Shown here in pieces: positions 48,072-58,208 of a stretch of 64,000 bases of DNA. Numbering within the stretch: the first letter of the stretch is position 1; each line of letters starts with the position of its first letter. Made by a program: the position numbers and the translations under genes. The notes beneath the pieces were generated by a model, which had not been told where the DNA came from, ran no database searches, and worked only from the letters and a program-made list of their open reading frames with translations. Origin of the DNA: Spirochaetia bacterium. GTDB lineage: Bacteria > Spirochaetota > Spirochaetia > UBA9216. Where the stretch lies: positions 1,216,001 to 1,280,000 of the forward strand of contig CAXXYH010000004.1 of assembly GCA_963677925.2 (NCBI GenBank), given 5' to 3'.

Positions 48072-48216
48072 ATATTTCCCCTTAATCAATTCCCAGAGAA
48101 TTGAGCCAATAGGCTGCATGGACCAAGAAGTCCTGTGAATAGCAACCTATCGTGCCCAAAACTCAATCCCTGTTCGTTCTGCAATAGCAGAATGTAAGAA
48201 TAATTTTGAATAATTA

Positions 48217-48308
<92 letters not shown>

Positions 48309-48326
<18 letters not shown>

Positions 48327-48752
48327 TTTTTTTTATTAATTTCAAAAAGCAGTATTACAATTCTTAACTTTTAAAATAATCACTCCCGCTAACGCGTGAA
48401 CTGATGTAACTTTTTTCACGTAAAATCTATCTAAACTAATAATTTGCGGGACTACGTTAGGCCCCATAGGCTCACCCTGAAAGTAGCACAGCAGGCTTAG
48501 CCTGATGTATAGTAGGTCATTGCCAGGCTTTTTTTTATTAATTTAGACCAACGGTCTAAATTAATAAAATATGAGACCTAAGAAGAGCTTGAAGTTTGGT
48601 AATACCAAACTTCAGAGAAAGTTCTGAATATTAAGCGGTTATATAAACCAATAGAAGTCTGGAAGATAACCAGAGATAAAGGGCAGCAAAGCCACTTTCT
48701 CCGGTCATTGGAGAAGCCTTAGGCATCTATGCCAGGCTTTTTTTATTAATTT
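48309..48752 (+). repeat. Three spaced copies of the 5S rRNA 3' end plus T-tract (5S-anchored repeat array)
   Basis: 34-nt AGTAGGTCATTGCCAGGCTTTTTTTTATTAATTT identical at 48309-48342 and 48511-48544; TGCCAGGCTTTTTTTATTAATTT at 48730-48752. Confidence 0.9.
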
Positions 48753-48820
48753 GCTAATCATTTAAAATATACTTTCGTTATCAGCATACTGCACTTATAA
48801 TTTATTTGTGAGGTAAAGCA

Positions 48821-51004
48821 ATGCGTAAGAATGTAATCTTCGCATTCAAAAAGTTTTCGTCAAACAAAAATATTTTTATAAGTATAATATCTGTTTTTAT
48901 CATAACTCTTTTCTTTCCAAACAGTATTTTTTCTGAAGATCAATTTAGAAAAATTACAGTAGTCTATCCATATAATATGGCTACTGATTGGGACATGGCT
49001 TTTAATCAGAAATTTTACAATTCGATTATTATAAAAAGAGGAACCAATACCAGAATATCTTTTTTGAATATCAAATACAGTCTTGAGGATAATATAAATA
49101 GAAGAGTTAACCTTGTGCCGCAGATTGACTTAATTAAAGAAGAATACCAGCCTGATTTAATAGTTGCCATGTTTTCATCTGTACAGAATTTGTTTTTAGA
49201 TTTGGAAGATGATTCTTTAAATCAGATTGACAAGATATTTGTCCCAGTGGTTCCGCAAATGTTTGAGGAGCTTAATAAGATACCAAATTCGTTTATCATA
49301 CAAAGTTCATCCGGTTATGCTATAGAAAATAATATATTAAGTTTTAAAAATTTGCTTCCACAAAGAAGGCATTTAATTGTTGTGAGCGGTGCGGGTGAGA
49401 ACGACAGCCCATACCTTGATATGTTTAAAGCAAAAGTTAAAAAATTGTCAATGGATGAATATTATTCAATAGATTATATAGTAGGGCAGACTGAAGAAGA
49501 CCTGATTAATTCAATAAAAGAATTAAGTTCTAAGAACGGTATCTTGTATTTTCTCCCATACAATATGGACACTGAAGATAATGTTTATGAATTATCTTAT
49601 CTATTTCCAATAATTTATGAAAATGCTGATATGCCTGTATTCTCATTTTTTAATGATACAATCCCTTTGGGAGCTGTCGGCGGTATTATGACAAGCCCGG
49701 AGGCTTACGGTAGTTTTTCCGCCGAAGTCGCATTAAAAATATTAAGCGAAGGAAAGATTGATAATACGGAAGAGCAGACCGCATATGTGCATCAATATAA
49801 CTGGCTTGAATTGAATAAATGGGGTATTGATGAAGCCAAATTGCCAGATGATTGTGAAATACTTTATAAGCAGTATACCTTCTTTCAGGAATATAAATCT
49901 CGAATTATTTTTGTAGTTATTCTTGTTTTTCTGGAAACATGTCTTATTGTTGCCTTGTCATTTAATTTGGTTAAAAGAAAGCGTGCAGAAATTGAACTGA
50001 GAAAAAACGAAGGCTTTTTTGAAAGAACCGAAAAAATAGCCAAGCTGGCGGGATGGGAAATTGATAATATATCTAAACAATTGATACTGACAAAAGAAGC
50101 GCGGCATCTTCTAGGGGCACCAGTTGATAAACCAGTAGTAATAAAGTCAATATTGAAGAATATAGAAAGATCATATCTGCATGAGTTTATTCAGGCAGTT
50201 CATAGCGTAAATAAAAATAATTCTATCGATTGTGTAATTAGATATAAAACCTACTCCGAAAATTATTCCTGGTTAAGAATTGCAGGAGGCCCTGTCAGAA
50301 TCAACAGCAGGTTGACAAGAATGTCAGGAATTATTCAGAATATCACGGTTGAAAAAGAAAACGAACTAAGGCTTACGAAGATATTAAACGAAAAAGAAAT
50401 TCTTTTAAAAGAGGTTCATCACCGTGTAAAAAACAATCTGGCCATCATTTTATCAATAATTGAACTGCAGAAAGCCGCTTTTGAAGAACCCGTAATAAAT
50501 GAAATTTTACAAAAAACTCAGGGGCGTGTTCGAACAATTGCTTTGATATTTGAACTATTATTCCTGGATAATGAGGTAGAAGAAGTCAATCTTAAGAATT
50601 TTGTAGATATGCTTGTAAATTCAATTATCTCAGAAAATTGGGATAAGGGCCCCGGACTTAAAATTGAACTTAATGTTAGTGAAATTTCAATGAAACTTGA
50701 GATGTTATTTCCTATTGGTCTGATTATAAATGAGCTTGTAGATAATGCTCTACGGCATGGCCTGTATTCAGTCGATATTCCGGAATTGACTGTTATAGCT
50801 GATATTATAGATAAGAGAGAGAATCAGCTTTATATAATAATCCGCGATAATGGGCGCGGGTTTAAGAATATCGAAAATGAATCAGGGAAAAGTAAAACTG
50901 TAGGTCTTTTTTTGGTAGAAACACTTGTTGAGCAGCTTGATGGAATTTTTAAAAAAATTACAGAGGAAAACACAGTATTTGAAATTAGAATACCGTTAAA
51001 ATGA
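48821..51004 (+). CDS. Sensor histidine kinase (extracellular ABC-SBP-like sensor, PAS-like, HisKA_2)
   Basis: N-terminal TM, GAVGG...NWLELNKWGI sensor motif, TM, LLKEVHHRVKNNL, GLIINELVDNALRHG, DNGRG. Confidence 0.87.
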   Translation: MRKNVIFAFKKFSSNKNIFISIISVFIITLFFPNSIFSEDQFRKITVVYPYNMATDWDMAFNQKFYNSIIIKRGTNTRISFLNIKYSLEDNINRRVNLVPQIDLIKEEYQPDLIVAMFSSVQNLFLDLEDDSLNQIDKIFVPVVPQMFEELNKIPNSFIIQSSSGYAIENNILSFKNLLPQRRHLIVVSGAGENDSPYLDMFKAKVKKLSMDEYYSIDYIVGQTEEDLINSIKELSSKNGILYFLPYNMDTEDNVYELSYLFPIIYENADMPVFSFFNDTIPLGAVGGIMTSPEAYGSFSAEVALKILSEGKIDNTEEQTAYVHQYNWLELNKWGIDEAKLPDDCEILYKQYTFFQEYKSRIIFVVILVFLETCLIVALSFNLVKRKRAEIELRKNEGFFERTEKIAKLAGWEIDNISKQLILTKEARHLLGAPVDKPVVIKSILKNIERSYLHEFIQAVHSVNKNNSIDCVIRYKTYSENYSWLRIAGGPVRINSRLTRMSGIIQNITVEKENELRLTKILNEKEILLKEVHHRVKNNLAIILSIIELQKAAFEEPVINEILQKTQGRVRTIALIFELLFLDNEVEEVNLKNFVDMLVNSIISENWDKGPGLKIELNVSEISMKLEMLFPIGLIINELVDNALRHGLYSVDIPELTVIADIIDKRENQLYIIIRDNGRGFKNIENESGKSKTVGLFLVETLVEQLDGIFKKITEENTVFEIRIPLK

Positions 51005-51053
51005 ACTGTACTTATTTATTAATTGAAGTTAAAATAATTCCGGGAGAAAAAAT

Positions 51054-51392
51054 ATGAAAAAGTCAAATTTATTAGTTCTTATCTTTATATCATTTATTTT
51101 AATTGGATGTAATTTGTCCGGTAATTCAATTCTTTTAATTAATGAAACTGAATATACTGTATTTTTCGAATACCGTGACGGTTCTAAAGATAATGGTGCA
51201 GATAATATGGTGACAGCTGAAATAGCTGCAGAATCTGATTTAACCCTGAATGATGTCGAACTATGGGGTATTGGATCTGAAAAAGAGTTATTATACTCTG
51301 GTGCATGGACAGATGAAGGCGTTGATATTGATGTAAACCAGCTGCCTGGAACTGTCTTATGGCCACTAACGGTCAGATTTACGGAAGAGTAG
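51054..51392 (+). CDS. Hypothetical lipoprotein
   Basis: MKK, hydrophobic stretch, LIGC lipobox; GGGAG SD. Confidence 0.7.
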   Translation: MKKSNLLVLIFISFILIGCNLSGNSILLINETEYTVFFEYRDGSKDNGADNMVTAEIAAESDLTLNDVELWGIGSEKELLYSGAWTDEGVDIDVNQLPGTVLWPLTVRFTEE

Positions 51393-51397
51393 AATCT

Positions 51398-52303
51398 TCA
51401 CAGGCGGATATTAAGCCAGTTCTGAATATCATCCAAAACCTCATCTTTTAATGGTTCGTTTAGTATTTCGTGCCGGGCGCCTTTATAGAATTTTAAAGTT
51501 ACATCATTTTTTTCTGATGAACGTAGACTGTTGAATATTTTTTTTACCTCTCTTCCGTATCTTCCTACAGGGTCTTCTGTCCCAGATATAAGCAGAATTG
51601 ATGTTTTGTCCGGTATTTTTTTCAGATTCTTTAAAGAATGAATCTCTTTAAGCAATTCAATAAGATCCAGATAAAATGAAGAACTGTACATTGACAGACC
51701 CTGTCCACGATTTTCAATAAACTCTTTAACTACCTTTTCATCGGAGCATATCCAGTCAAAAAATGTTTTAGGGTGTTTAATCCTGCGGTTAAAATCGGCA
51801 AAACTTAAAATATTTACAAGCAGACTGGATTTATTACTTTTATACCAGCCACCTGTCAGCCCTGTGATGAAAAGGCCGGCGAAAGTCTTTAATTGGGAAA
51901 TCCCGCCGGTTCCGGAGAGTATTATTCCATTTAAAGACGTACCATATTTGATGGCATACTGAAGGGCAATGAAGGAGCCCAAACTATGTCCAAGTATATA
52001 AAATGGAAGTTTGGAATACTCATTCTCAATCAGATTGTGAAGCTTGTGTATATCACTTATCATATCTGAAATAGAAGGGTTTTCTGCATTAGACTCTCCA
52101 TGACCTCTTAAGTCGGGGATTGTACAGATGAATCCTCTTGAACATAGATATTGTGCGGTATATCGGTATCTTTCCTTATACTCGCCCATTCCGTGGAGTA
52201 TTATTATGAGACCACGGGCCTTTATCGGGAAGGACGGTTTACAAAGGTTATAAAAGATTTCAGTGCTATCTTCAGCTGTAAAATTAAAAACACTGGTGCT
52301 CAA
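51398..52303 (-). CDS. Alpha/beta hydrolase (lysophospholipase-like)
   Basis: ILHGMGEY..RY, DLRGHG, GHSLGS, GTEDPVG, ARHEILNE. Confidence 0.9.
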   Translation of the reverse strand: MSTSVFNFTAEDSTEIFYNLCKPSFPIKARGLIIILHGMGEYKERYRYTAQYLCSRGFICTIPDLRGHGESNAENPSISDMISDIHKLHNLIENEYSKLPFYILGHSLGSFIALQYAIKYGTSLNGIILSGTGGISQLKTFAGLFITGLTGGWYKSNKSSLLVNILSFADFNRRIKHPKTFFDWICSDEKVVKEFIENRGQGLSMYSSSFYLDLIELLKEIHSLKNLKKIPDKTSILLISGTEDPVGRYGREVKKIFNSLRSSEKNDVTLKFYKGARHEILNEPLKDEVLDDIQNWLNIRL

Positions 52304-52884
52304 TCTTTTTTATTTCTCCTGAAAGGATTCATAGTCAGGAACGCACTGTCACTTCCCTTAAAGTTTGAAATTGCTCCTGTGACGGCAAGAAAAATACTCA
52401 AACCAAGCAGGATGAATTTTAATGATGTAAACACAGCTAAAATAATTGCGCTGTAATTGTTGATTAAATTATGGGAAAAATTTAGAATTATCAGAGTAAT
52501 ATTTTCGGTATAGTCGAAGATTGCACCGAATAACGGGGTAAGAAGAATCCATCGGTAATTTACCGGTTCGCTGTATTTTATACGGTATATAAAATTTAGA
52601 ATTACAGAAAGCATTATTGCATATACTGCCGGAAAAAGAAAATCGACTGACCTTATAATTCCATAAGCGATAGTTCCGTCTGTTTTATATGCTTCAAACA
52701 AACTTGAAAGCTGTTCCGAAGTTAAACCTATTTTCATATCAGGAATAAGAGACGTTCCGCATTCGGCTTCAAGTCTGTTCATCAGTACTGCAAATACAGT
52801 TTCCATAACGATAAAAAGAATTATTAAAACAGAAAATGCTGTTTTGCTGGTCAAAAAATTGACTGATTTTATGTAGTTTTTCAT
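52300..52884 (-). CDS. Hypothetical membrane protein
   Basis: About four hydrophobic helices, DFLFPAVY and FDYTEN motifs; start uncertain (52884 or 52911). Confidence 0.7.
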   Translation of the reverse strand: MKNYIKSVNFLTSKTAFSVLIILFIVMETVFAVLMNRLEAECGTSLIPDMKIGLTSEQLSSLFEAYKTDGTIAYGIIRSVDFLFPAVYAIMLSVILNFIYRIKYSEPVNYRWILLTPLFGAIFDYTENITLIILNFSHNLINNYSAIILAVFTSLKFILLGLSIFLAVTGAISNFKGSDSAFLTMNPFRRNKKD

Positions 52885-53046
52885 TAGACAATATTTTATG
52901 TTGAAACTCAATTTTAAGCAAGAATGGTCATATGTTCACAATAATGAACAAAAAATCATTAATATTAGTGAATATATGTTCAAGCTATTGCACAAATATC
53001 CGCTAGCTAATAATATTCCGACGTAAATGTAATACGGGAGTTGTAA

Positions 53047-55116
53047 ATGGAAATTCAATATGTACTTTATGCTGTTCTTATAGGCAGCTTACTGGCTCTT
53101 GCATACGCTCTTCTAAGATCAAGGTGGATTTACCGGCAGGAAGTTGGAAATGAAACTTTAAAAAGAATCGGCGGATATGTATCTGAAGGAGCTATGGCCT
53201 TTTTAAGCAGGGAATACAGAGTTCTGGTACCTTTTGTTGTTCTGGTAGCTGCTTTTCTGGCTATCGGTAATAAGGGTGCTATCAGGCTTCAGTCTCTGTC
53301 TTTTGTATTGGGTGCGCTTTGTTCTGCACTTGCAGGTTTTATCGGAATGAAGGTTGCAACAGCTTCCAACTCAAGAACAACTCAGGCAGCTAAAGATAAG
53401 GGTCTTAATGGTGCTCTAAAAGTGGCTTTCTCAGGCGGAAGTGTCATGGGGATGAGCGTTGTAGGTCTTGCTCTCATGGGACTTTTTATCGTTCTTGTTG
53501 TTACAACCAATCTGTTTGGTGAAGATGTTGATACACTTTCATCTGTAATACTTCCAATTGTTACAGGCTTTTCGCTTGGAGCTTCTTCAATTGCGCTCTT
53601 TTCTCGTGTAGGCGGAGGTATCTTTACTAAAGCTGCAGATGTTGGTGCAGACCTTGTCGGTAAGGTTGAAGCTGGTATACCTGAAGATGACCCGCGTAAC
53701 CCGGCTACTATTGCAGATAACGTAGGTGATAATGTCGGTGATGTTGCAGGTATGGGTGCAGACCTTTTTGAGTCTTTTGTCGGCTCAATTGCCGGTTCTA
53801 TGATTCTGGGTCTCACAATTGTAGCAGAAGATGCCCTTAAAGTTAAAATGATGCTTCTTCCTCTGATTCTTGTAACAGTCGGAGTTGCTGCATCGCTGAT
53901 CGGTACTCTGTTTGTAAGGACCAAACCGGGAAAGAATCCGCAGAAAGCGCTAAATGCCGGAACCTTCGGTGCAGGGCTTCTTGCAACTGCTATGACTTTT
54001 GTTGTACTGAAATTTTTTATCGGTGATGCTACTTTTAACGGCGGTGCCGGTATCTACCATATCTTCGGTTCATGTGTAATTGGACTTGCTGCCGGTGTTA
54101 TCATCGGTCTTATGACTGAGTATTTTACGGGTACAGATACAAGACCTGTAACTTCCATTATGAAATCATGTGAAACCGGTCCTGCTACAACACTTATCAC
54201 AGGGCTTGGTGTCGGAATGGTAAGCGCCTTCCCTGCAATCATCATTATCGGAGCAGCTATATGGACGAGTTTTGCTCTTGCCGGGCTTTACGGTGTTGGT
54301 ATTGCCGCTGTCGGTATGCTTATCACACTCGGTATTCAGCTTGCAGTAGATGCTTACGGTCCGATTGCTGATAATGCCGGAGGACTTGCAGAAATGTCGG
54401 AGTTTCCGCCTGAGGTAAGAGATATCACCGATAATCTTGATGCGGTTGGAAATACTACTGCCGCCATTGGAAAGGGTTTTGCAATCGGCTCAGCAGCTCT
54501 TACTGCAATCATTCTTTTTACTTCGTTTAAAGAACAGTCCGGAATATCAAGTGTAGACCTTACAAATATCCCTGTTCTTGTAGGTATTCTGCTTGGTGCG
54601 GTTATTCCCTATCTTTTCTCATCAATGGCAATGAATGCTGTAGGTAAAGCCGCATATAAGATGATTGAAGAGGTTAGAAGACAGTTCAGAGAGAAACCCG
54701 GTATTCTTAATGATGAAGAAGAACCTGACTACAAACGATGTGTTGATATCAGTACTCAGGCGGCTCTTAAGGAAATGATTCTTCCCGGAGTTGTCTCTAT
54801 TATAACACCGATTATTGTAGGCTTTACAGGCGGACCTGATATGCTCATCGGTCTTCTTACCGGTGTAACAGCCTCAGGCGTTGTTCTTGCTATCTTTATG
54901 TCAAATGCAGGCGGTGCCTGGGACAATGCTAAAAAGATGGTAGAAGCCGGCGGAAGCGGCGGAAAGGGCTCTGATGCTCACAAAGCTGCCGTTGTAGGTG
55001 ATACTGTCGGTGATCCGTTCAAGGATACAGCCGGCCCGTCAATAAATATTCTTATTAAATTGATGTCTATGGTATCGCTTGTTATCGCACCTATGTTAAA
55101 ATCGTTCTGGGGGTAA
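53047..55116 (+). CDS. hppA: Membrane-integral pyrophosphatase, K+-dependent, probably Na+-translocating
   Basis: [42 protein letters not shown] (Na+-PPase-type Glu position), GNTTAA (Ala marks K+ dependence), [11 protein letters not shown]. Confidence 0.95.
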
Positions 55117-55124
55117 TTTAATTT

Positions 55125-55916
55125 ATGGTTGATTATATGTACGGCAGATACCTTTACATGATCTGTCATCCGAATCAGGCTCTTGTAGCATCACAGTATG
55201 AACCTTCAAAGTTTGCCAGACATTACAGTTCCGGCTCAACAAGGTATTATGATGGTAAACTGATCTTTGCAGAAATTGATACCGATTTCCGTAATCCTTA
55301 CTTCGATATTGATAAGGGTTTTGAGGCTCTGGTACCGCATGAAGACGGCAGACCCAAGGCTACAAAGTTTATCAGCACTTACAGGGTTCTTGAGCATGTT
55401 GATTTTGATGCAATAAAGCACCTTCACCTTGCTAATTCTGACGGATCATGTTATCCGCTTTCCCCTGCAGAATATGATGCAGTGCATCAGCCTGATTTTT
55501 TAAGGATCTTTGCTGAGATTGCTCCGCTTAAAATGCTTGTACTGTCAAGTTCAAACTTCAGTGAGTACGGCAAGTGGATAACTGATCCGGACAACAACAA
55601 GGGCGCTCCAAAGATGCTTTACACTCAGTTTGACCTTAATATTGCTGATTTTCTAAACGATTTTGAGGCAAATCCGCTTATGCCTAATCCTCTTCCGAGT
55701 GTTCATCCTTCAAAACTCAGAGATGCAATTTTTGAGATTAAAAGCACTCCGAAGCATACAAAAGGATTGAGTATAGATTTCTCTTTCAAGAATAAATCAT
55801 TCAGGCAGATTAGACATGGCTTCATGTTTGCATCACCTGATAAAGAGGTTTTCTTTCCGATGCCTTCATTTGATGTAATTGAAAAAGAGAACTATAAATT
55901 CTGGCGCAATATGTGA
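55125..55916 (+). CDS. Conserved hypothetical cytoplasmic protein
   Basis: 263-aa ORF 8 bp after hppA; motifs [38 protein letters not shown]. Confidence 0.8.
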
Positions 55917-55950
55917 TAGTATAAAGGATAATCTATTATCAGGAGCTATT

Positions 55951-56211
55951 ATGGCCAAAAGTCAACTTAGACTGATTATTGGAATTGTTATTCTTGCGGT
56001 TGGTATCGTTGTAGGTGTATACGGAATATATCTGTATAATAATCTGCAGTCATCAGTTATGAACTCGCTTGAGAAGGCGTTTGTGGGAAGCACTGACGCA
56101 GAGACCCAGGCAATTATCTTTATGGGCAGCGGTGCAGTTGGTGCTGTTCTGGGGCTGGTAATTCTGCTGACAGGCGGAAGCCGCAGAGGCAGAGGCCGTC
56201 GCAGACGCTAG
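55951..56211 (+). CDS. Small two-TM membrane protein (DUF3185-like)
   Basis: IIGIVILAVGIVV...SLEKAFVGSTD...GAVGAVLGLVILL with an Arg-rich tail; ATG after AGGAG. Confidence 0.65.
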   Translation: MAKSQLRLIIGIVILAVGIVVGVYGIYLYNNLQSSVMNSLEKAFVGSTDAETQAIIFMGSGAVGAVLGLVILLTGGSRRGRGRRRR

Positions 56212-56763
56212 ATGCATAATCATAAGAAAATAATTCTTATTCTGATTTTTTTATCCTGCTTAACATTTATTCAGGCTCAGGAGCTTTCTTCTGAGCCTGA
56301 AGCAGTTTCGGGACAGGAGTCCGCTTTACTTCCGGAAAACGGAGTGTCTCTTGATTTTCGGATAGGAGCCGGCAGCACCTTCATTATTCCGGGACTATCT
56401 GCGGAACTTGGAGTTCCAATTACTTTTCTTGACAGAAATCTTACCCTCACGCCCTTTGTCGGTTTTCTGTATCAGTTTGCCGTCATGGATGAACTTCAGC
56501 AGGGTATATACTTTCCCGCCGGTGTTTCGATTATTCATAATCCTACATCACTGGGGTTAAAGCTCAAATATAATTTTCCACTTTCATGGACCGGACATTA
56601 CTTTGATGTACTGCTTATGAGCAATAAAACCGTGTATGAATCAGACCCGTTTTCGCTGTATTTTGACCTGCTTTTCGGACCGGCTGTATACCTTGATACT
56701 TCAACGGACATCAGTGTTTATATCAATTTGAGACTTGGATTTGGTGCAAGATATCACCTGTAA
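56212..56763 (+). CDS. Hypothetical exported protein, possible small beta-barrel
   Basis: Signal peptide (..TFIQA), alternating hydrophobic strands, C-terminal LRLGFGARYHL. Confidence 0.6.
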   Translation: MHNHKKIILILIFLSCLTFIQAQELSSEPEAVSGQESALLPENGVSLDFRIGAGSTFIIPGLSAELGVPITFLDRNLTLTPFVGFLYQFAVMDELQQGIYFPAGVSIIHNPTSLGLKLKYNFPLSWTGHYFDVLLMSNKTVYESDPFSLYFDLLFGPAVYLDTSTDISVYINLRLGFGARYHL

Positions 56764-56767
56764 CTGG

Positions 56768-56796
56768 TTGACTAAATCGATAAAATAAACTAAATT
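56768..56796 (+). promoter_or_regulatory. Promoter of tRNA-Leu
   Basis: TTGACT, 17 bp, TAAATT, ending 13 bp upstream of the tRNA. Confidence 0.65.
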
Positions 56797-56809
56797 ATCC
56801 GAGCATTAA

Positions 56810-56893
56810 GCAGCAGTGGTGGAATTGGTAGACACGCTAGCTTGAGGGGCTAGTGGGCGTTCGCTCGTGGAGGTTCAAGTCCTCTCTGCTGCA
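56810..56893 (+). tRNA. tRNA-Leu (GAG)
   Basis: GCAGCAGTGGTGGAATTGGTAGACACGCTAGCTTGAGGGGCTAGTGGGCGTTCGCTCGTGGAGGTTCAAGTCCTCTCTGCTGCA; long variable arm. Confidence 0.96.
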
Positions 56894-56937
56894 GATAAAA
56901 AAAGGCTATCCGACAAAGGATAGTCTTTTTTTATCTG
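56892..56937 (+). terminator. Terminator after tRNA-Leu (20-bp stem)
   Basis: CAGATAAAAAAAGGCTATCC-GACAAA-GGATAGTCTTTTTTTATCTG. Confidence 0.85.
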
Positions 56938-56946
56938 TACTCAGAA

Positions 56947-57096
56947 AGAGAGGACTTGAACCGGAGCTTCGGTGCGAATACTTGGAGCGCAAAACTGCGA
57001 GGATGCAGTTTTAGAAGCGTAGGCGGGTTGTAGTGAGCTGTCCGGATACAGCGACTGAAAACCAAGTCCTCGGAGAACCTTCGGTTCTCTGCTGCA
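56947..57096 (+). repeat. tRNA-linked RtT-like structured repeat unit
   Basis: 16-nt inverted copy of the tRNA T-arm (56947-56962), internal hairpins, and a regenerated tRNA 3' end CAAGTCC[16-nt insert]TCTCTGCTGCA at 57063-57096. Confidence 0.75.
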
Positions 57097-57107
57097 ATAT
57101 AAATAGT

Positions 57108-57142
57108 AAGAGATTAATCAATGATGATTAGTCTCTTTTTTT
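57108..57142 (+). terminator. Second terminator after the regenerated tRNA 3' end
   Basis: AAGAGATTAATCA-ATGA-TGATTAGTCTCTT followed by a T-run. Confidence 0.75.
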
Positions 57143-57269
57143 ATACTAAATCGCAAACTAACAATGATGCTGAGTTTTTATAGAGCTCAATTGAAATATG
57201 TTTGCCGACAGGCGGCTTTTTTATTAATAAATTTGAGGTTGCTCAATATAATTTGCCGGATCTTGATTT

Positions 57270-58208
57270 CTACTTCAGATTCTTAATCTTTTCTCTGTAA
57301 AACTCAGTTCCCTGTGACAGTTTATTAAGAATCGGTTCGATTGCCCAAATTCTTTCATATACATCATAGGTTATAGCCCTCGATTTAACAGTGTCAAAAT
57401 TGCCAATTTGCTTATGATACATTTTAGCAATAACCGGATATCCGTAGGACTCAGTGCATGCAGCGAGTACGAGAAATGTAGCCAGCTCTTCAGCTTCTTC
57501 AGGATATTTCTCACCGTTGGTATATAACCATTTATAGAGGTCAGGGTGAAAGTTCGCAAGTACTCCGTTGAATCCTTTTGACCCTGCTTTCATGGCGTCC
57601 CATGCAATAGCGGCATTAGCATTTAAGATGGAAATTCCTGATTCTTTTGTTATCCGGATACGGTTCTTGATTGTTTCAAGATCACAAGATACGTCTTTAA
57701 CCATGTTAAAGCGTCCGGTATCTGCCATATATTTCAACTCATCATCGGTGATCAGCCTTCGGAACGGAGCCGGACATTCATACATTCCCAGAGGAATATC
57801 CCCGGGCAGCTTGTCAATTAACCAGTTCAGGTTCCCTATGAAGGTTTCTGTTCCGCGTTGGTGAGGATCCAGGTGATTTGATACAAGAACTATTCCATCG
57901 GCTCCGGAATCAACTGCAGCTGTTAATTCCTCGATTTGATCATATGGGTCATCACTGATATGGCCGCTCGCAACTACAGGAATTCGACCATTAACGTATT
58001 TTACTACGGTTCGGGCAAGTTCTGCTCGTTCGTTTAGAGATAGATGCTGCATCTCACTTGATTGACATACTGCAAACAGAGCATCTGCTCCCATTTTTAT
58101 ATACCATTCTACGATTCTCTCAAGGCTCTTATAATCAATCCGGTTGTCCTCGGTAAAAGGTGTAATCATTACGGGTACTATGCCCTCGATTACTTTATTG
58201 CTTTTCAT
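57270..58208 (-). CDS. Dihydrodipicolinate synthase (DapA/NAL) family protein, non-canonical
   Basis: GIVPVMITPFT, VCQSSEM (in place of GTTGE), YECPAP, Schiff-base Lys in KDVSC. Confidence 0.88.
   Translation of the reverse strand: MKSNKVIEGIVPVMITPFTEDNRIDYKSLERIVEWYIKMGADALFAVCQSSEMQHLSLNERAELARTVVKYVNGRIPVVASGHISDDPYDQIEELTAAVDSGADGIVLVSNHLDPHQRGTETFIGNLNWLIDKLPGDIPLGMYECPAPFRRLITDDELKYMADTGRFNMVKDVSCDLETIKNRIRITKESGISILNANAAIAWDAMKAGSKGFNGVLANFHPDLYKWLYTNGEKYPEEAEELATFLVLAACTESYGYPVIAKMYHKQIGNFDTVKSRAITYDVYERIWAIEPILNKLSQGTEFYREKIKNLK

Follow-up and report, generated by a model that had tools for sequence, protein, structure and literature searches.

Why should the genes for two unrelated stable RNAs, 5S rRNA and tRNA-Leu(GAG), each be followed by non-coding units of about 200 nt that rebuild the 3' end of the gene upstream? 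The question is raised by a stretch of 64,000 nt from a Spirochaetia bacterium (GCA_963677925.2, contig CAXXYH010000004.1), which we call the window; the genome, G000, comprises 5.04 Mb in 4 contigs. Two units, A and B, lie behind the 5S gene and one lies behind the tRNA gene (Table 1). A preliminary description of the window attributed all three, as a hypothesis, to an enzyme acting in trans. We favour another answer as the probable one: the three units would be trailer cassettes like the repeats that encode the RtT RNA of Escherichia coli, that is, structured non-coding RNA genes resident behind a tRNA or 5S gene in the same orientation, with ends matched to the host gene and a cargo specific to each family.

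The repeats themselves are real. The spacings of 202, 209 and 203 nt reported at the outset were recovered. The 34-nt segment formed by the 5S tail and its T-tract at 48309 recurs with 100% identity at 48511, at a spacing of 202. A third copy, at 48720 and a spacing of 209, is shortened (62% over 34 nt) and retains TGCCAGGC, T7 and ATTAATTT, while 13 nt of the 5S gene have a perfect inverted copy inside unit A. Behind tRNA-Leu(GAG), the final 11 nt of the gene are copied directly at 57086, at a spacing of 203. Among 4000 random 30-mers of G000, a direct copy of at least 10 nt occurred within 600 nt in 2.75% of cases and an inverted copy in 1.85%. At the gathering threshold and at E up to 10, Rfam holds no known family for any of the window units, and tail copies were not found downstream of the RNase P RNA, SRP RNA, 6S RNA or tmRNA of G000.

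The 5S array is no assembly artefact, a possibility that the preliminary description had itself raised. All three 5S genes of G000 are followed by units in different orders: 5S-A-B at rrn1 (the window), 5S-B-A-B at rrn2 and 5S-B-A-B-B-A' at rrn3, A' being a divergent A. Relatives carry arrays as well. Contigs from one public DNA run, which may be the assembly's own source and whose contigs break at the repeats without bridging the array, have depths of 25.8 for unit A and 18.4 and 27 for parts of unit B, versus 9.46 for the flank; these depths agree with the assembled copy numbers of 3, 2 and 3. The rrn loci of a sister species (G001) read 5S-B, 5S-B-A and 5S-B, and the locus orthologous to rrn3 has one unit there and five in G000.

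The claim that one architecture serves two unrelated kinds of stable RNA gene has also held up, since it recurs across the Spirochaetia. A DNA search of 40 relatives placed the middle of the tRNA-linked unit behind tRNA-Leu, tRNA-Met and tRNA-Pro of other genera, in tandem in two genomes. A scan for a 22-mer of the core, with one genome per species, returned 46 loci, 34 in records labelled as spirochaetes and 12 in other phyla. A same-strand tRNA lies just upstream at 29 of the 34, versus none of the 12, and at those 29 an inverted copy of the host tail precedes the motif and a direct copy follows about 91 nt after it. With R1, a covariance model built after alignment of 33 tRNA-linked units, we found units in 54 of 151 Spirochaetia genomes, representing 41 of the 88 genera of the class, and in 4 genomes from other classes of the phylum. 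Units stand alone or form arrays, whose periods are 172-235 bp and mostly about 185, and two genomes hold 15-20 or more copies.

The 82 distinct R1 matches, at 70 loci, divide into 70 with a same-strand tRNA upstream, 10 within 400 nt of a contig end and 2 with neither; one of these two is a weak partial match, and the host of the other is called a tRNA by neither ARAGORN nor Rfam. The first unit mostly lies 35-45 nt behind its tRNA. Fifteen isoacceptors serve as hosts to first units: Leu-gag (12), Met (10), Pro-ggg (8), Leu-cag (6), Arg-tct (5), Pro-cgg (3), then Asn, Gly-gcc and Thr-cgt (two each) and Val, Glu, Leu-caa, Pro-tgg, Gly-ccc and Ala-cgc (one each). An additional array of the same family lies behind tRNA-Leu(taa). 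Within G000, R1 matches behind tRNA-Leu(GAG) with 123 bits, tRNA-Arg(TCT) with 47 and tRNA-Ala(CGC) with 45, and does not recover the 5S units. Among the 47 tRNA and tmRNA genes of this genome, tail copies other than those of neighbouring genes occur at six tRNA genes, with periods of 203 (Leu-gag), 193 (Ala-cgc), 174 (Arg-tct), 91 (Pro-ggg), 65 (Leu-caa) and 461 (Arg-ccg; 10 nt only, near the chance level). The tRNA-linked units account for many of the terminator clusters and 'orphan' tRNA 3' fragments that follow tRNA and rRNA genes.

Counterparts also lie behind 5S genes. A model of unit B (R2) matches in 6 of the 151 genomes, and all 6 of its hits in G000 fall inside the three 5S arrays. 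Two tandem copies of unit B stand directly behind a 5S gene in a genome of another family (G061). In G025, likewise of another family than G000, the 5S-linked unit has an antisense segment, TGGCAATGACC, complementary to the very end of the 5S gene, and a tail copy at a spacing of 189; the layout of antisense and sense copies is likewise present behind 5S genes in G010 and G006.

What is constant in these units is their order. The host terminator is followed by an arm (S') antisense to the 3' region of the host, then by a structured core, by S, which repeats the host 3' end in the sense direction, and by another terminator. At tRNA genes, the direct copy typically starts at position 56 in the T-loop (C56) and ends with the discriminator base, a length of 18 nt; the inverted copy measures 8-16 nt. 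As first proposed, the ends of the units match the local host at all loci; in the R1 family, both S' and S match the local tRNA at every locus, and among the tRNA-Leu(GAG) loci of different genomes S tracks the host's own variants. Our alignment of 33 units (A1) supports a common fold in which S' and S form helix P1, P2 encloses hairpins P3 and P4, and P5 is a separate domain. Over the 38 pairs of this structure, 88.5% of cells are paired, versus 28-41% when the partners are slid, and 256 cells have changed on both sides, versus 82 in shuffles, none of 500 shuffles attaining 256. P1 is itself 77% paired, with both-side changes at 7 of its 12 pairs; in some units at Met, Val and Arg hosts it has a length of 14-17 bp. 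The paired columns hold 44 G-U versus 25 A-C combinations (23 versus 7 without P1), the units contain 228 GGA versus 57 TCC, and the motif CAGGANG occurs 104 times in 100 distinct units, versus twice on the reverse complement. This bias in G-U pairs, trinucleotides and motif argues for an RNA of the same sense as the tRNA.

Compensatory changes that conserve a structure across a bacterial class, strand-specific motifs and the presence of the same core behind 15 types of host are hard to reconcile with functionless by-products, arising from slippage or template switching at terminator palindromes and left to neutral drift. We hold such an origin very improbable, even though it would suit the symmetry of S' across the terminator palindrome, the fast shifts in copy number and the short units of 65 and 91 nt, each a hairpin with a tail copy, at two other tRNA genes.

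A second alternative starts from the host. S' is a perfect complement of the host gene, 16 nt long behind tRNA-Leu and 13 nt long behind 5S, with the terminator at the centre of the repeat, and Rfam files RtT as cis-regulatory. Each unit may then be a device acting in cis, in which S' pairs with the host 3' region of a read-through transcript and controls its folding, 3' processing or decay, while S competes for S' and releases the host. This seems to us rather improbable: S' has a second partner in its own S, and the later units of an array, which lie far from the host, all retain P1. A device for a single host needs neither covarying cores nor arrays of 5-6 units, and most tRNA genes of G000 are free of units (R1 matches at 3 of 47, a direct tail copy at 3 more).

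The layout of the spirochaete units is not new in kind: it matches that of the E. coli tyrT repeats. One unit of these repeats encodes the rtT RNA, as described in the accessible part of PMC3318445. The 178-bp unit of tyrT/tyrV in E. coli K-12 consists of an S' segment (GGGGAAGGAT), a core and an S segment of 19 nt (AATCCTTCCCCCACCACCA), and the likeness to RtT (RF00391, gene rttR) extends to several features. Both are tandem units, of about 180 nt in E. coli, directly behind a tRNA on the same strand, and each unit ends in a copy of the tRNA 3' end, 19 nt long in E. coli and 18 nt in spirochaetes. The Rfam consensus of RtT has a P1 of S' and S closing the RNA and a P2 enclosing two hairpins, and its tail is the acceptor strand with CCA; the spirochaete units also leave an acceptor-strand tail. 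They differ in that each has its own terminator and an additional P5 domain. Their hosts are 15 isoacceptors and 5S, whereas RtT is hosted by the enterobacterial tRNA-Tyr, an isoacceptor that hosts none of the 70 units with a called upstream tRNA. They are also rich in GGA, whereas the E. coli RttR has 2 GGA and no CAGGANG.

This correspondence is one of topology; we also looked for homology at the level of the covariance models, where neither model finds the other family. RF00391 (gathering threshold 45 bits) has no hit at E up to 10 on window positions 56750-57300 and none at E up to 1 on four further loci (L072, L073, L014 and L093), versus 133-138 bits for E. coli control units, and the best score of R1 at the E. 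coli tyrT locus is 3.7 bits. Small RNAs are also known from the external transcribed spacers of tRNA operons, such as the sponge in the E. coli leuZ trailer, where the trailer RNA shares the promoter and terminator of the operon. They resemble the spirochaete units in coming from a tRNA-operon trailer; unlike them, they have no antisense arm, rebuilt tRNA end or tandem units. Our literature search did not find a description of the spirochaete units or of their 5S-linked counterparts.

S' pairs with S and closes the unit, leaving the 3' strand of the host acceptor as a tail before the terminator. Under the RtT-like reading, the cassettes would stay at their host loci and be inherited vertically. 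The S-plus-terminator segments, being repeated, would allow gain and loss of units through recombination or slippage. S and S' may track the host by gene conversion with the nearby host gene, combined with selection for P1; gene conversion over about 180 nt, together with correction of the S-terminator-S' palindrome, is a plausible way to keep the ends matched, and upkeep would then require no dedicated enzyme. Transcripts would arise by terminator read-through from the strong host promoter, and the cassettes probably borrow the host's signals for end maturation. The cargo is specific to the family: CsrB-type CAGGANG loops in the tRNA-linked units, other hairpins in A and B.

Several observations weigh against this reading. 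Each unit is preceded by an intrinsic terminator, and no promoter-like site was found in front of the tRNA-Leu unit, so that we assume read-through expression. Along the acceptor strand, S does not differ from the host, yet P1 pairing there is no better than in the shuffled control; this identity fits gene conversion, and equally some other function. The covariation of unit B is based on just 9 copies from 3 genomes. Finally, local recombination alone does not account for the first making of S' and S at 15 tRNAs and 5S. We had also considered that P1, formed over the whole acceptor strand, might be a minihelix mimicking the substrate of RNase P or RNase Z, and rejected the idea: mean pairing past the T-stem is no better than that of the shuffled control.

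A process adapting ends to hosts is what the preliminary description had in mind when it invoked a nuclease, recombinase or reverse transcriptase that builds or inserts host-templated mini-elements in trans, the units being non-autonomous mobile elements. Ends that fit 15 tRNA hosts and 5S around a retained core, tandem arrays, a core that was swapped, inside flanks that were kept, between two congeneric species, and a module of unit A found behind a tRNA-Arg unit would all agree with it. We nevertheless judge it unlikely. Open reading frames (ORFs) of at least 110 aa within about 1.5 kb of 30 loci share no common family (99 ORFs, the largest cross-locus cluster being 3), and no recombinase was found between or after the two loci in the window (48.8-60.2 kb), as the preliminary description had already noted. 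Near-identical cores at different hosts were not found, and orthologous loci retain their own core lineage. In a comparison of two complete genomes from a single genus, cores of the same array have median identities of 0.98 and 0.99, cores at different hosts of a genome 0.54-0.59 (0.79 at most), and cores at the same host locus of the two genomes 0.57-0.87. Such values speak against recent movement between loci. Cores that are near-identical within arrays and dissimilar across hosts suggest that recent dynamics consist of local recombination between S-plus-terminator segments. Two alternating unit types, in the tRNA-Pro(cgg) array of G072 and the 5S arrays of G000, fit block duplication.

Nor does the neighbourhood agree with the proposed capture of islands of accessory genes. 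Housekeeping genes follow both loci: between and after them lie genes for a HisKA_2 kinase, a hydrolase, an H+-pyrophosphatase, a DUF3185 protein, a DHDPS-family enzyme, a dehydrogenase and a GntR regulator, and the sister species has kept the flank behind tRNA-Leu. The units appear to be resident at their host loci, and we see no sign of a builder acting in trans.

Integrases are subdivided by their target site within the tRNA, and the repeat found here, 18 nt from C56 of the T-loop to the discriminator base, would suit integration at the T-loop. A parallel is the phage Ms6, whose attP core recombines with attB in the T-loop of tRNA-Ala, according to the part of PMC1762012 available; the same source describes direct repeats from the T-loop to the 3' end that flank an insert and regenerate the tRNA gene, as in the spirochaete units. 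The units might be miniature integrative elements or attP-only remnants of a T-loop tyrosine integrase, perhaps still mobilised in trans; in a variant, the S-terminator-S' palindrome would be a folded single-strand att site like the attC of integrons or that of the CTX phage. The first terminator of an array is unlike the internal ones, a lone S' closes some arrays, and G000 has ordinary islands flanked by tRNA tail copies, all of which this explanation would accommodate. We assign it a low probability. Islands and phages that integrate at tRNAs are of kilobase size and carry an integrase, whereas the spirochaete units measure 130-210 nt, with inserts of about 130-190 nt, and no integrase adjoins them. 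Their cargo, just about 110 nt, shows covariation of the RNA type with G-U pairs, the loci are inherited in place across genera, and 5S units have the same layout. We know of no integrase that targets 5S. Furthermore, the E. coli counterpart gives an RNA product, as the available text of PMC3318445 relates.

The 5S units follow the same design as the tRNA-linked ones. We also considered that they might be extra or decayed 5S genes, but the 5S model recognises neither: positions 48150-48850 contain a single 5S match even at E up to 10. Unit A has relatives in G001, G006 and G010, and its S', CTCCCGCTAACGC, is conserved in all three. In A' and in G001, this segment pairs (by eye) with a downstream sense copy, GTTAGCGGGA, which suggests that unit A is also of the form S'-core-S, with S split by an insertion. 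Its link to the tRNA loci is direct. A 66-nt module at window positions 48448-48514, containing CGTTAGG and CCCTGAAAGTAGCACAG, recurs at G000:C3:1266709-1266775, joined at GGAC. It stands directly behind the tRNA-Arg unit, which indicates that 5S-type and tRNA-type loci exchange parts and bears out the connection between them claimed in the preliminary description. At the C3 site, where part of a 5S-type unit has come to lie in a tRNA trailer, the module is followed by an apparent decayed 5S tail, GTAAGGTTGCCGTGAG.

Unit B differs in its inverted repeat. The early antisense fragment of the host, stated to be common to all three units, is present in unit A and in the tRNA-Leu unit; in unit B, the inverted repeat is instead that of the trailer (T-tract and ATTAATTT). 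Copies of unit B are 188-209 nt long, start with the palindrome over the T-tract and end in ..CCGGTCAT(A/T)..GCCAGGC followed by T7-8. The tip of hairpin H1 varies among copies and its palindrome is retained; in the long-range helix between GAGAAAGT and ACTTTCTC, 4 of 8 pairs have changed on both sides. The segment GTCTGGAA is kept in 8 of 9 copies, and AGTCTGGAAGATAA may pair with the CCAGGC tail. Judging from the letters alone, unit B resembles an imitation of 5S helix I, look-alikes of both strands being kept. A minus-strand match to the TD-2 RNA motif of Treponema denticola at 48529-48628, where the first hairpins of unit B lie (19.9 bits versus 48.7, E 2.6), was set aside as probably due to chance.

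The loops of the tRNA-linked units offer a lead to function. GGA is their commonest trinucleotide, at 6.9 per unit versus 4.7 in dinucleotide shuffles, and 154 of the 228 GGA lie in unpaired columns. The loops of P4 and P5 read C-AGGAN-G, and CAGGANG is present at least once in 71 of 100 units and at least twice in 29. The E. coli CsrB RNA, an antagonist of CsrA, has 22 GGA, 2 TCC and 9 CAGGANG in 369 nt, a GGA density of 5.96 per 100 nt versus 4.72 in the spirochaete units. The likeness to CsrB and RsmZ thus includes GGA in hairpin loops, the CAGGANG motif, a 3' terminator and the multiplication of sites, here by tandem units; the difference is that the spirochaete loops are embedded in a scaffold templated on the host tRNA. 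We obtained a CsrA hit in 118 of the 151 genomes of the class, G000 included, and in 51 of the 54 unit carriers (the CsrA status refers to these class genomes). It is possible, if still doubtful, that the tRNA-linked units titrate CsrA as a sponge.

We hold this view no more strongly because genomes and units are kin, so that the counts are not independent and Fisher values overstate, and because the window's own tRNA-Leu unit, with 6 GGA, has no exact CAGGANG, its loops reading AGGAUG and CCGGAU. Other points also tell against a sponge: 35 of 100 units have CACGANG, which lacks GGA, instead or in addition, the 5S units A and B are not rich in GGA, and the Rfam family PrrB_RsmZ scores only 27.9-28.8 bits on the units of G072, below its threshold of 44. 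Neither this family nor the other CsrA-sponge families of Rfam have a hit in the window. Furthermore, units persist in three genomes with no CsrA hit, G081 and G103 (each 98% complete) and G127 (55%), where they keep the tRNA, terminator, S', core and S. The retention of units there evidently points to a role of the scaffold that is independent of CsrA. In favour of the lead, CAGGANG occurs in 0 of the 9 units of these three genomes.

Even so, the RtT design is now class-wide in spirochaetes, with strong covariation, 15 tRNA hosts and 5S counterparts, and CsrB-type loops that are gone where there is no CsrA hit give a concrete functional handle on it. Later papers on the E. coli RtT, in the parts available, treat it as a local oddity and call its function unresolved. 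If expressed, the units would be a new abundant class of spirochaete small RNAs (sRNAs) tied to the strongest promoters of the cell. More speculatively, and with limited chances of holding in full, the E. coli tyrT repeats and the units at Spirochaetia tRNA and 5S genes may be one kind of satellite gene, in which a host-templated closing helix and tail let the RNA be made, matured and stabilised like its host, the spirochaete version displaying CsrB-type GGA loops that antagonise CsrA. It would then be the first sRNA antagonist of CsrA outside the Proteobacteria, CsrA activity, and with it flagellar and carbon control, would be coupled to the transcription of tRNA and rRNA, and through this to growth rate and to the stringent response, and the 45-year-old puzzle of RtT would gain a testable function. 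The accessible part of bioRxiv 10.1101/2020.07.02.184341 assigns sRNA antagonists of CsrA to gamma-proteobacteria and, for spirochaetes, names FliW alone; the units could be a second route of CsrA control in this phylum.

Table 1. Features of the 5S and tRNA-Leu(GAG) loci, with positions in the window
Feature	Position	Strand	Basis or remark
5S rRNA gene (host 1)	48218..48326	+	Rfam RF00001, 97.5 bits; one of three identical genomic copies
Repeat of S and terminator: final 18 nt of 5S, T8 and ATTAATTT	48309..48342	+	34-nt direct-repeat family, copies at 48309, 48511 and 48720
Unit A, 202 nt: AT-rich leader, S', core, regenerated 5S tail	48327..48528	+	At most 1 base apart across three rrn arrays
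S' of unit A, CTCCCGCTAACGC, antisense to 5S 48296-48308	48383..48395	+	13-nt inverted repeat, 100% complementary
Core module of unit A, GCGGGAC..CGTTAGG..CCCTGAAAGTAGCACAG..hairpin	48446..48514	+	66 nt align behind the tRNA-Arg(TCT) unit, contig C3
Regenerated 5S 3' end of unit A, AGTAGGTCATTGCCAGGC	48511..48528	+	Direct repeat; T8 follows
Unit B, 209 nt	48529..48737	+	Model R2, 194 bits
Hairpin H1 of unit B, palindrome over T-tract and ATTAATTT	48533..48569	+	17-nt arms, 100% complementary
Hairpin H2 of unit B	48590..48614	+	10 pairs, 5 with compensatory change among 9 copies
Long-range helix of unit B, GAGAAAGT (48615-48622) with ACTTTCTC (48694-48701)	48615..48701	+	8 pairs
AGTCTGGAAGATAA, like the 5' strand of 5S helix I (compare AGTCTGGTGATAAT at the 5S start)	48656..48669	+	Read from sequence
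Terminal hairpin of unit B, ending in TGCCAGGC (shortened 5S tail) and T7	48716..48744	+	Stem read from sequence
tRNA-Leu(GAG) gene (host 2), CCA not encoded	56810..56893	+	ARAGORN and Rfam
Terminator T0: palindrome of A-tract, hairpin and T-tract	56892..56937	+	20-nt arms, 95% complementary
S' of the tRNA-Leu unit, AGAGAGGACTTGAACC, antisense to tRNA T-arm 56872-56887	56947..56962	+	16-nt perfect inverted repeat
tRNA-linked unit RNA, P1 to P5	56947..57096	+	R1 123.1 bits, E 1.8e-38, at window 56936-57085
P2 (GCTTC/GAAGC) around P3 (56972-56990, loop GAATACTTGGA) and P4 (56991-57012, loop GAGGAT)	56966..57018	+	
P5 hairpin, GCTGT-CCGGAT-ACAGC	57037..57052	+	
Regenerated tRNA 3' end, split: CAAGTCCTC (57063-57071), inserted hairpin (57072-57089), TCTCTGCTGCA (57086-57096)	57063..57096	+	
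Terminator T2 behind the tRNA-Leu unit	57108..57144	+	13-pair stem and T-tract
Separate terminator-like hairpin with GGCTTTTTTATTAAT, not counted in the system	57202..57228	+	15-mer unique in genome

The tRNA-Leu(GAG) locus has a few features of its own. A promoter-like site at 56768-56796 precedes the tRNA gene. Terminator T0 reads as bidirectional, a terminator-like site being listed on the minus strand, and the inverted repeat of S' is nearly concentric with its 20-nt palindrome. S is split into 9 and 11 nt in the window unit, and the same split is found in the sister species G001. This orthologous locus (L014) retains both terminators, the S' arm and the hairpin inserted in the split S. 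Its core is of another type, without P3 and P4, and R1 scores 58 bits versus 123 in the window; a core replaced between retained flanks points to cassette-like exchange.

Sixty nt past T2 lies a further hairpin (TTGCCGACAGGCGG and T6, 57202-57228), which encloses an 80-nt stretch, 57145-57222, conserved in G001. The preliminary description had noted, as possibly due to chance, a recurrence of the 5S tail at 57214. The sequence in question, GGCTTTTTTATTAAT, is the T-tract of this hairpin; the exact 15-mer is unique in the genome, so no copy of the 5S tail is involved. Four ORFs between the two loci, 112-263 aa long, match no Pfam family at E up to 0.001: 51054-51392 (+), 52300-52911 (-), 55125-55916 (+) and 56212-56763 (+).

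Elsewhere in G000, an exact 18-nt copy of the tRNA-Leu(CAG) tail lies 35 kb downstream of its gene (G000:C4:480782 to 516312) and an exact 20-nt copy of the tRNA-Glu(TTC) tail 13 kb downstream (G000:C4:2146906 to 2160021); both are probably the ends of ordinary islands. As for E. coli, coverage of tyrT/rttR was raised in exonuclease-resistant mobilome DNA under several stresses, according to the part available of bioRxiv 10.1101/2024.07.17.603846. The raised coverage of tyrT/tyrV (L142, NC_000913.3) might represent excised repeat circles or nucleic-acid hybrids, between which its authors do not decide.

Shorter or atypical units were also seen. At L017 (G039), the 3' end reproduced in the unit belongs to an upstream sequence, ..GGGTTCGATTCCCATCGGGCGCTCT, in which ARAGORN and Rfam both recognise no tRNA or tmRNA, and a second unit ends immediately after its S'. 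Two short types occur in G000, at G000:C3:1217797-1217871 (minus strand) and G000:C4:143158-143241, each site taken with the downstream 400 nt. Behind tRNA-Leu(CAA), two 65-nt units each consist of a hairpin and a copy from the T-loop to the 3' end that is broken by a second hairpin. Behind tRNA-Pro(GGG), a 91-nt unit regenerates the tail, and its hairpin loop, CACTCCG, is also found behind tRNA-Pro(CGG) in G009.

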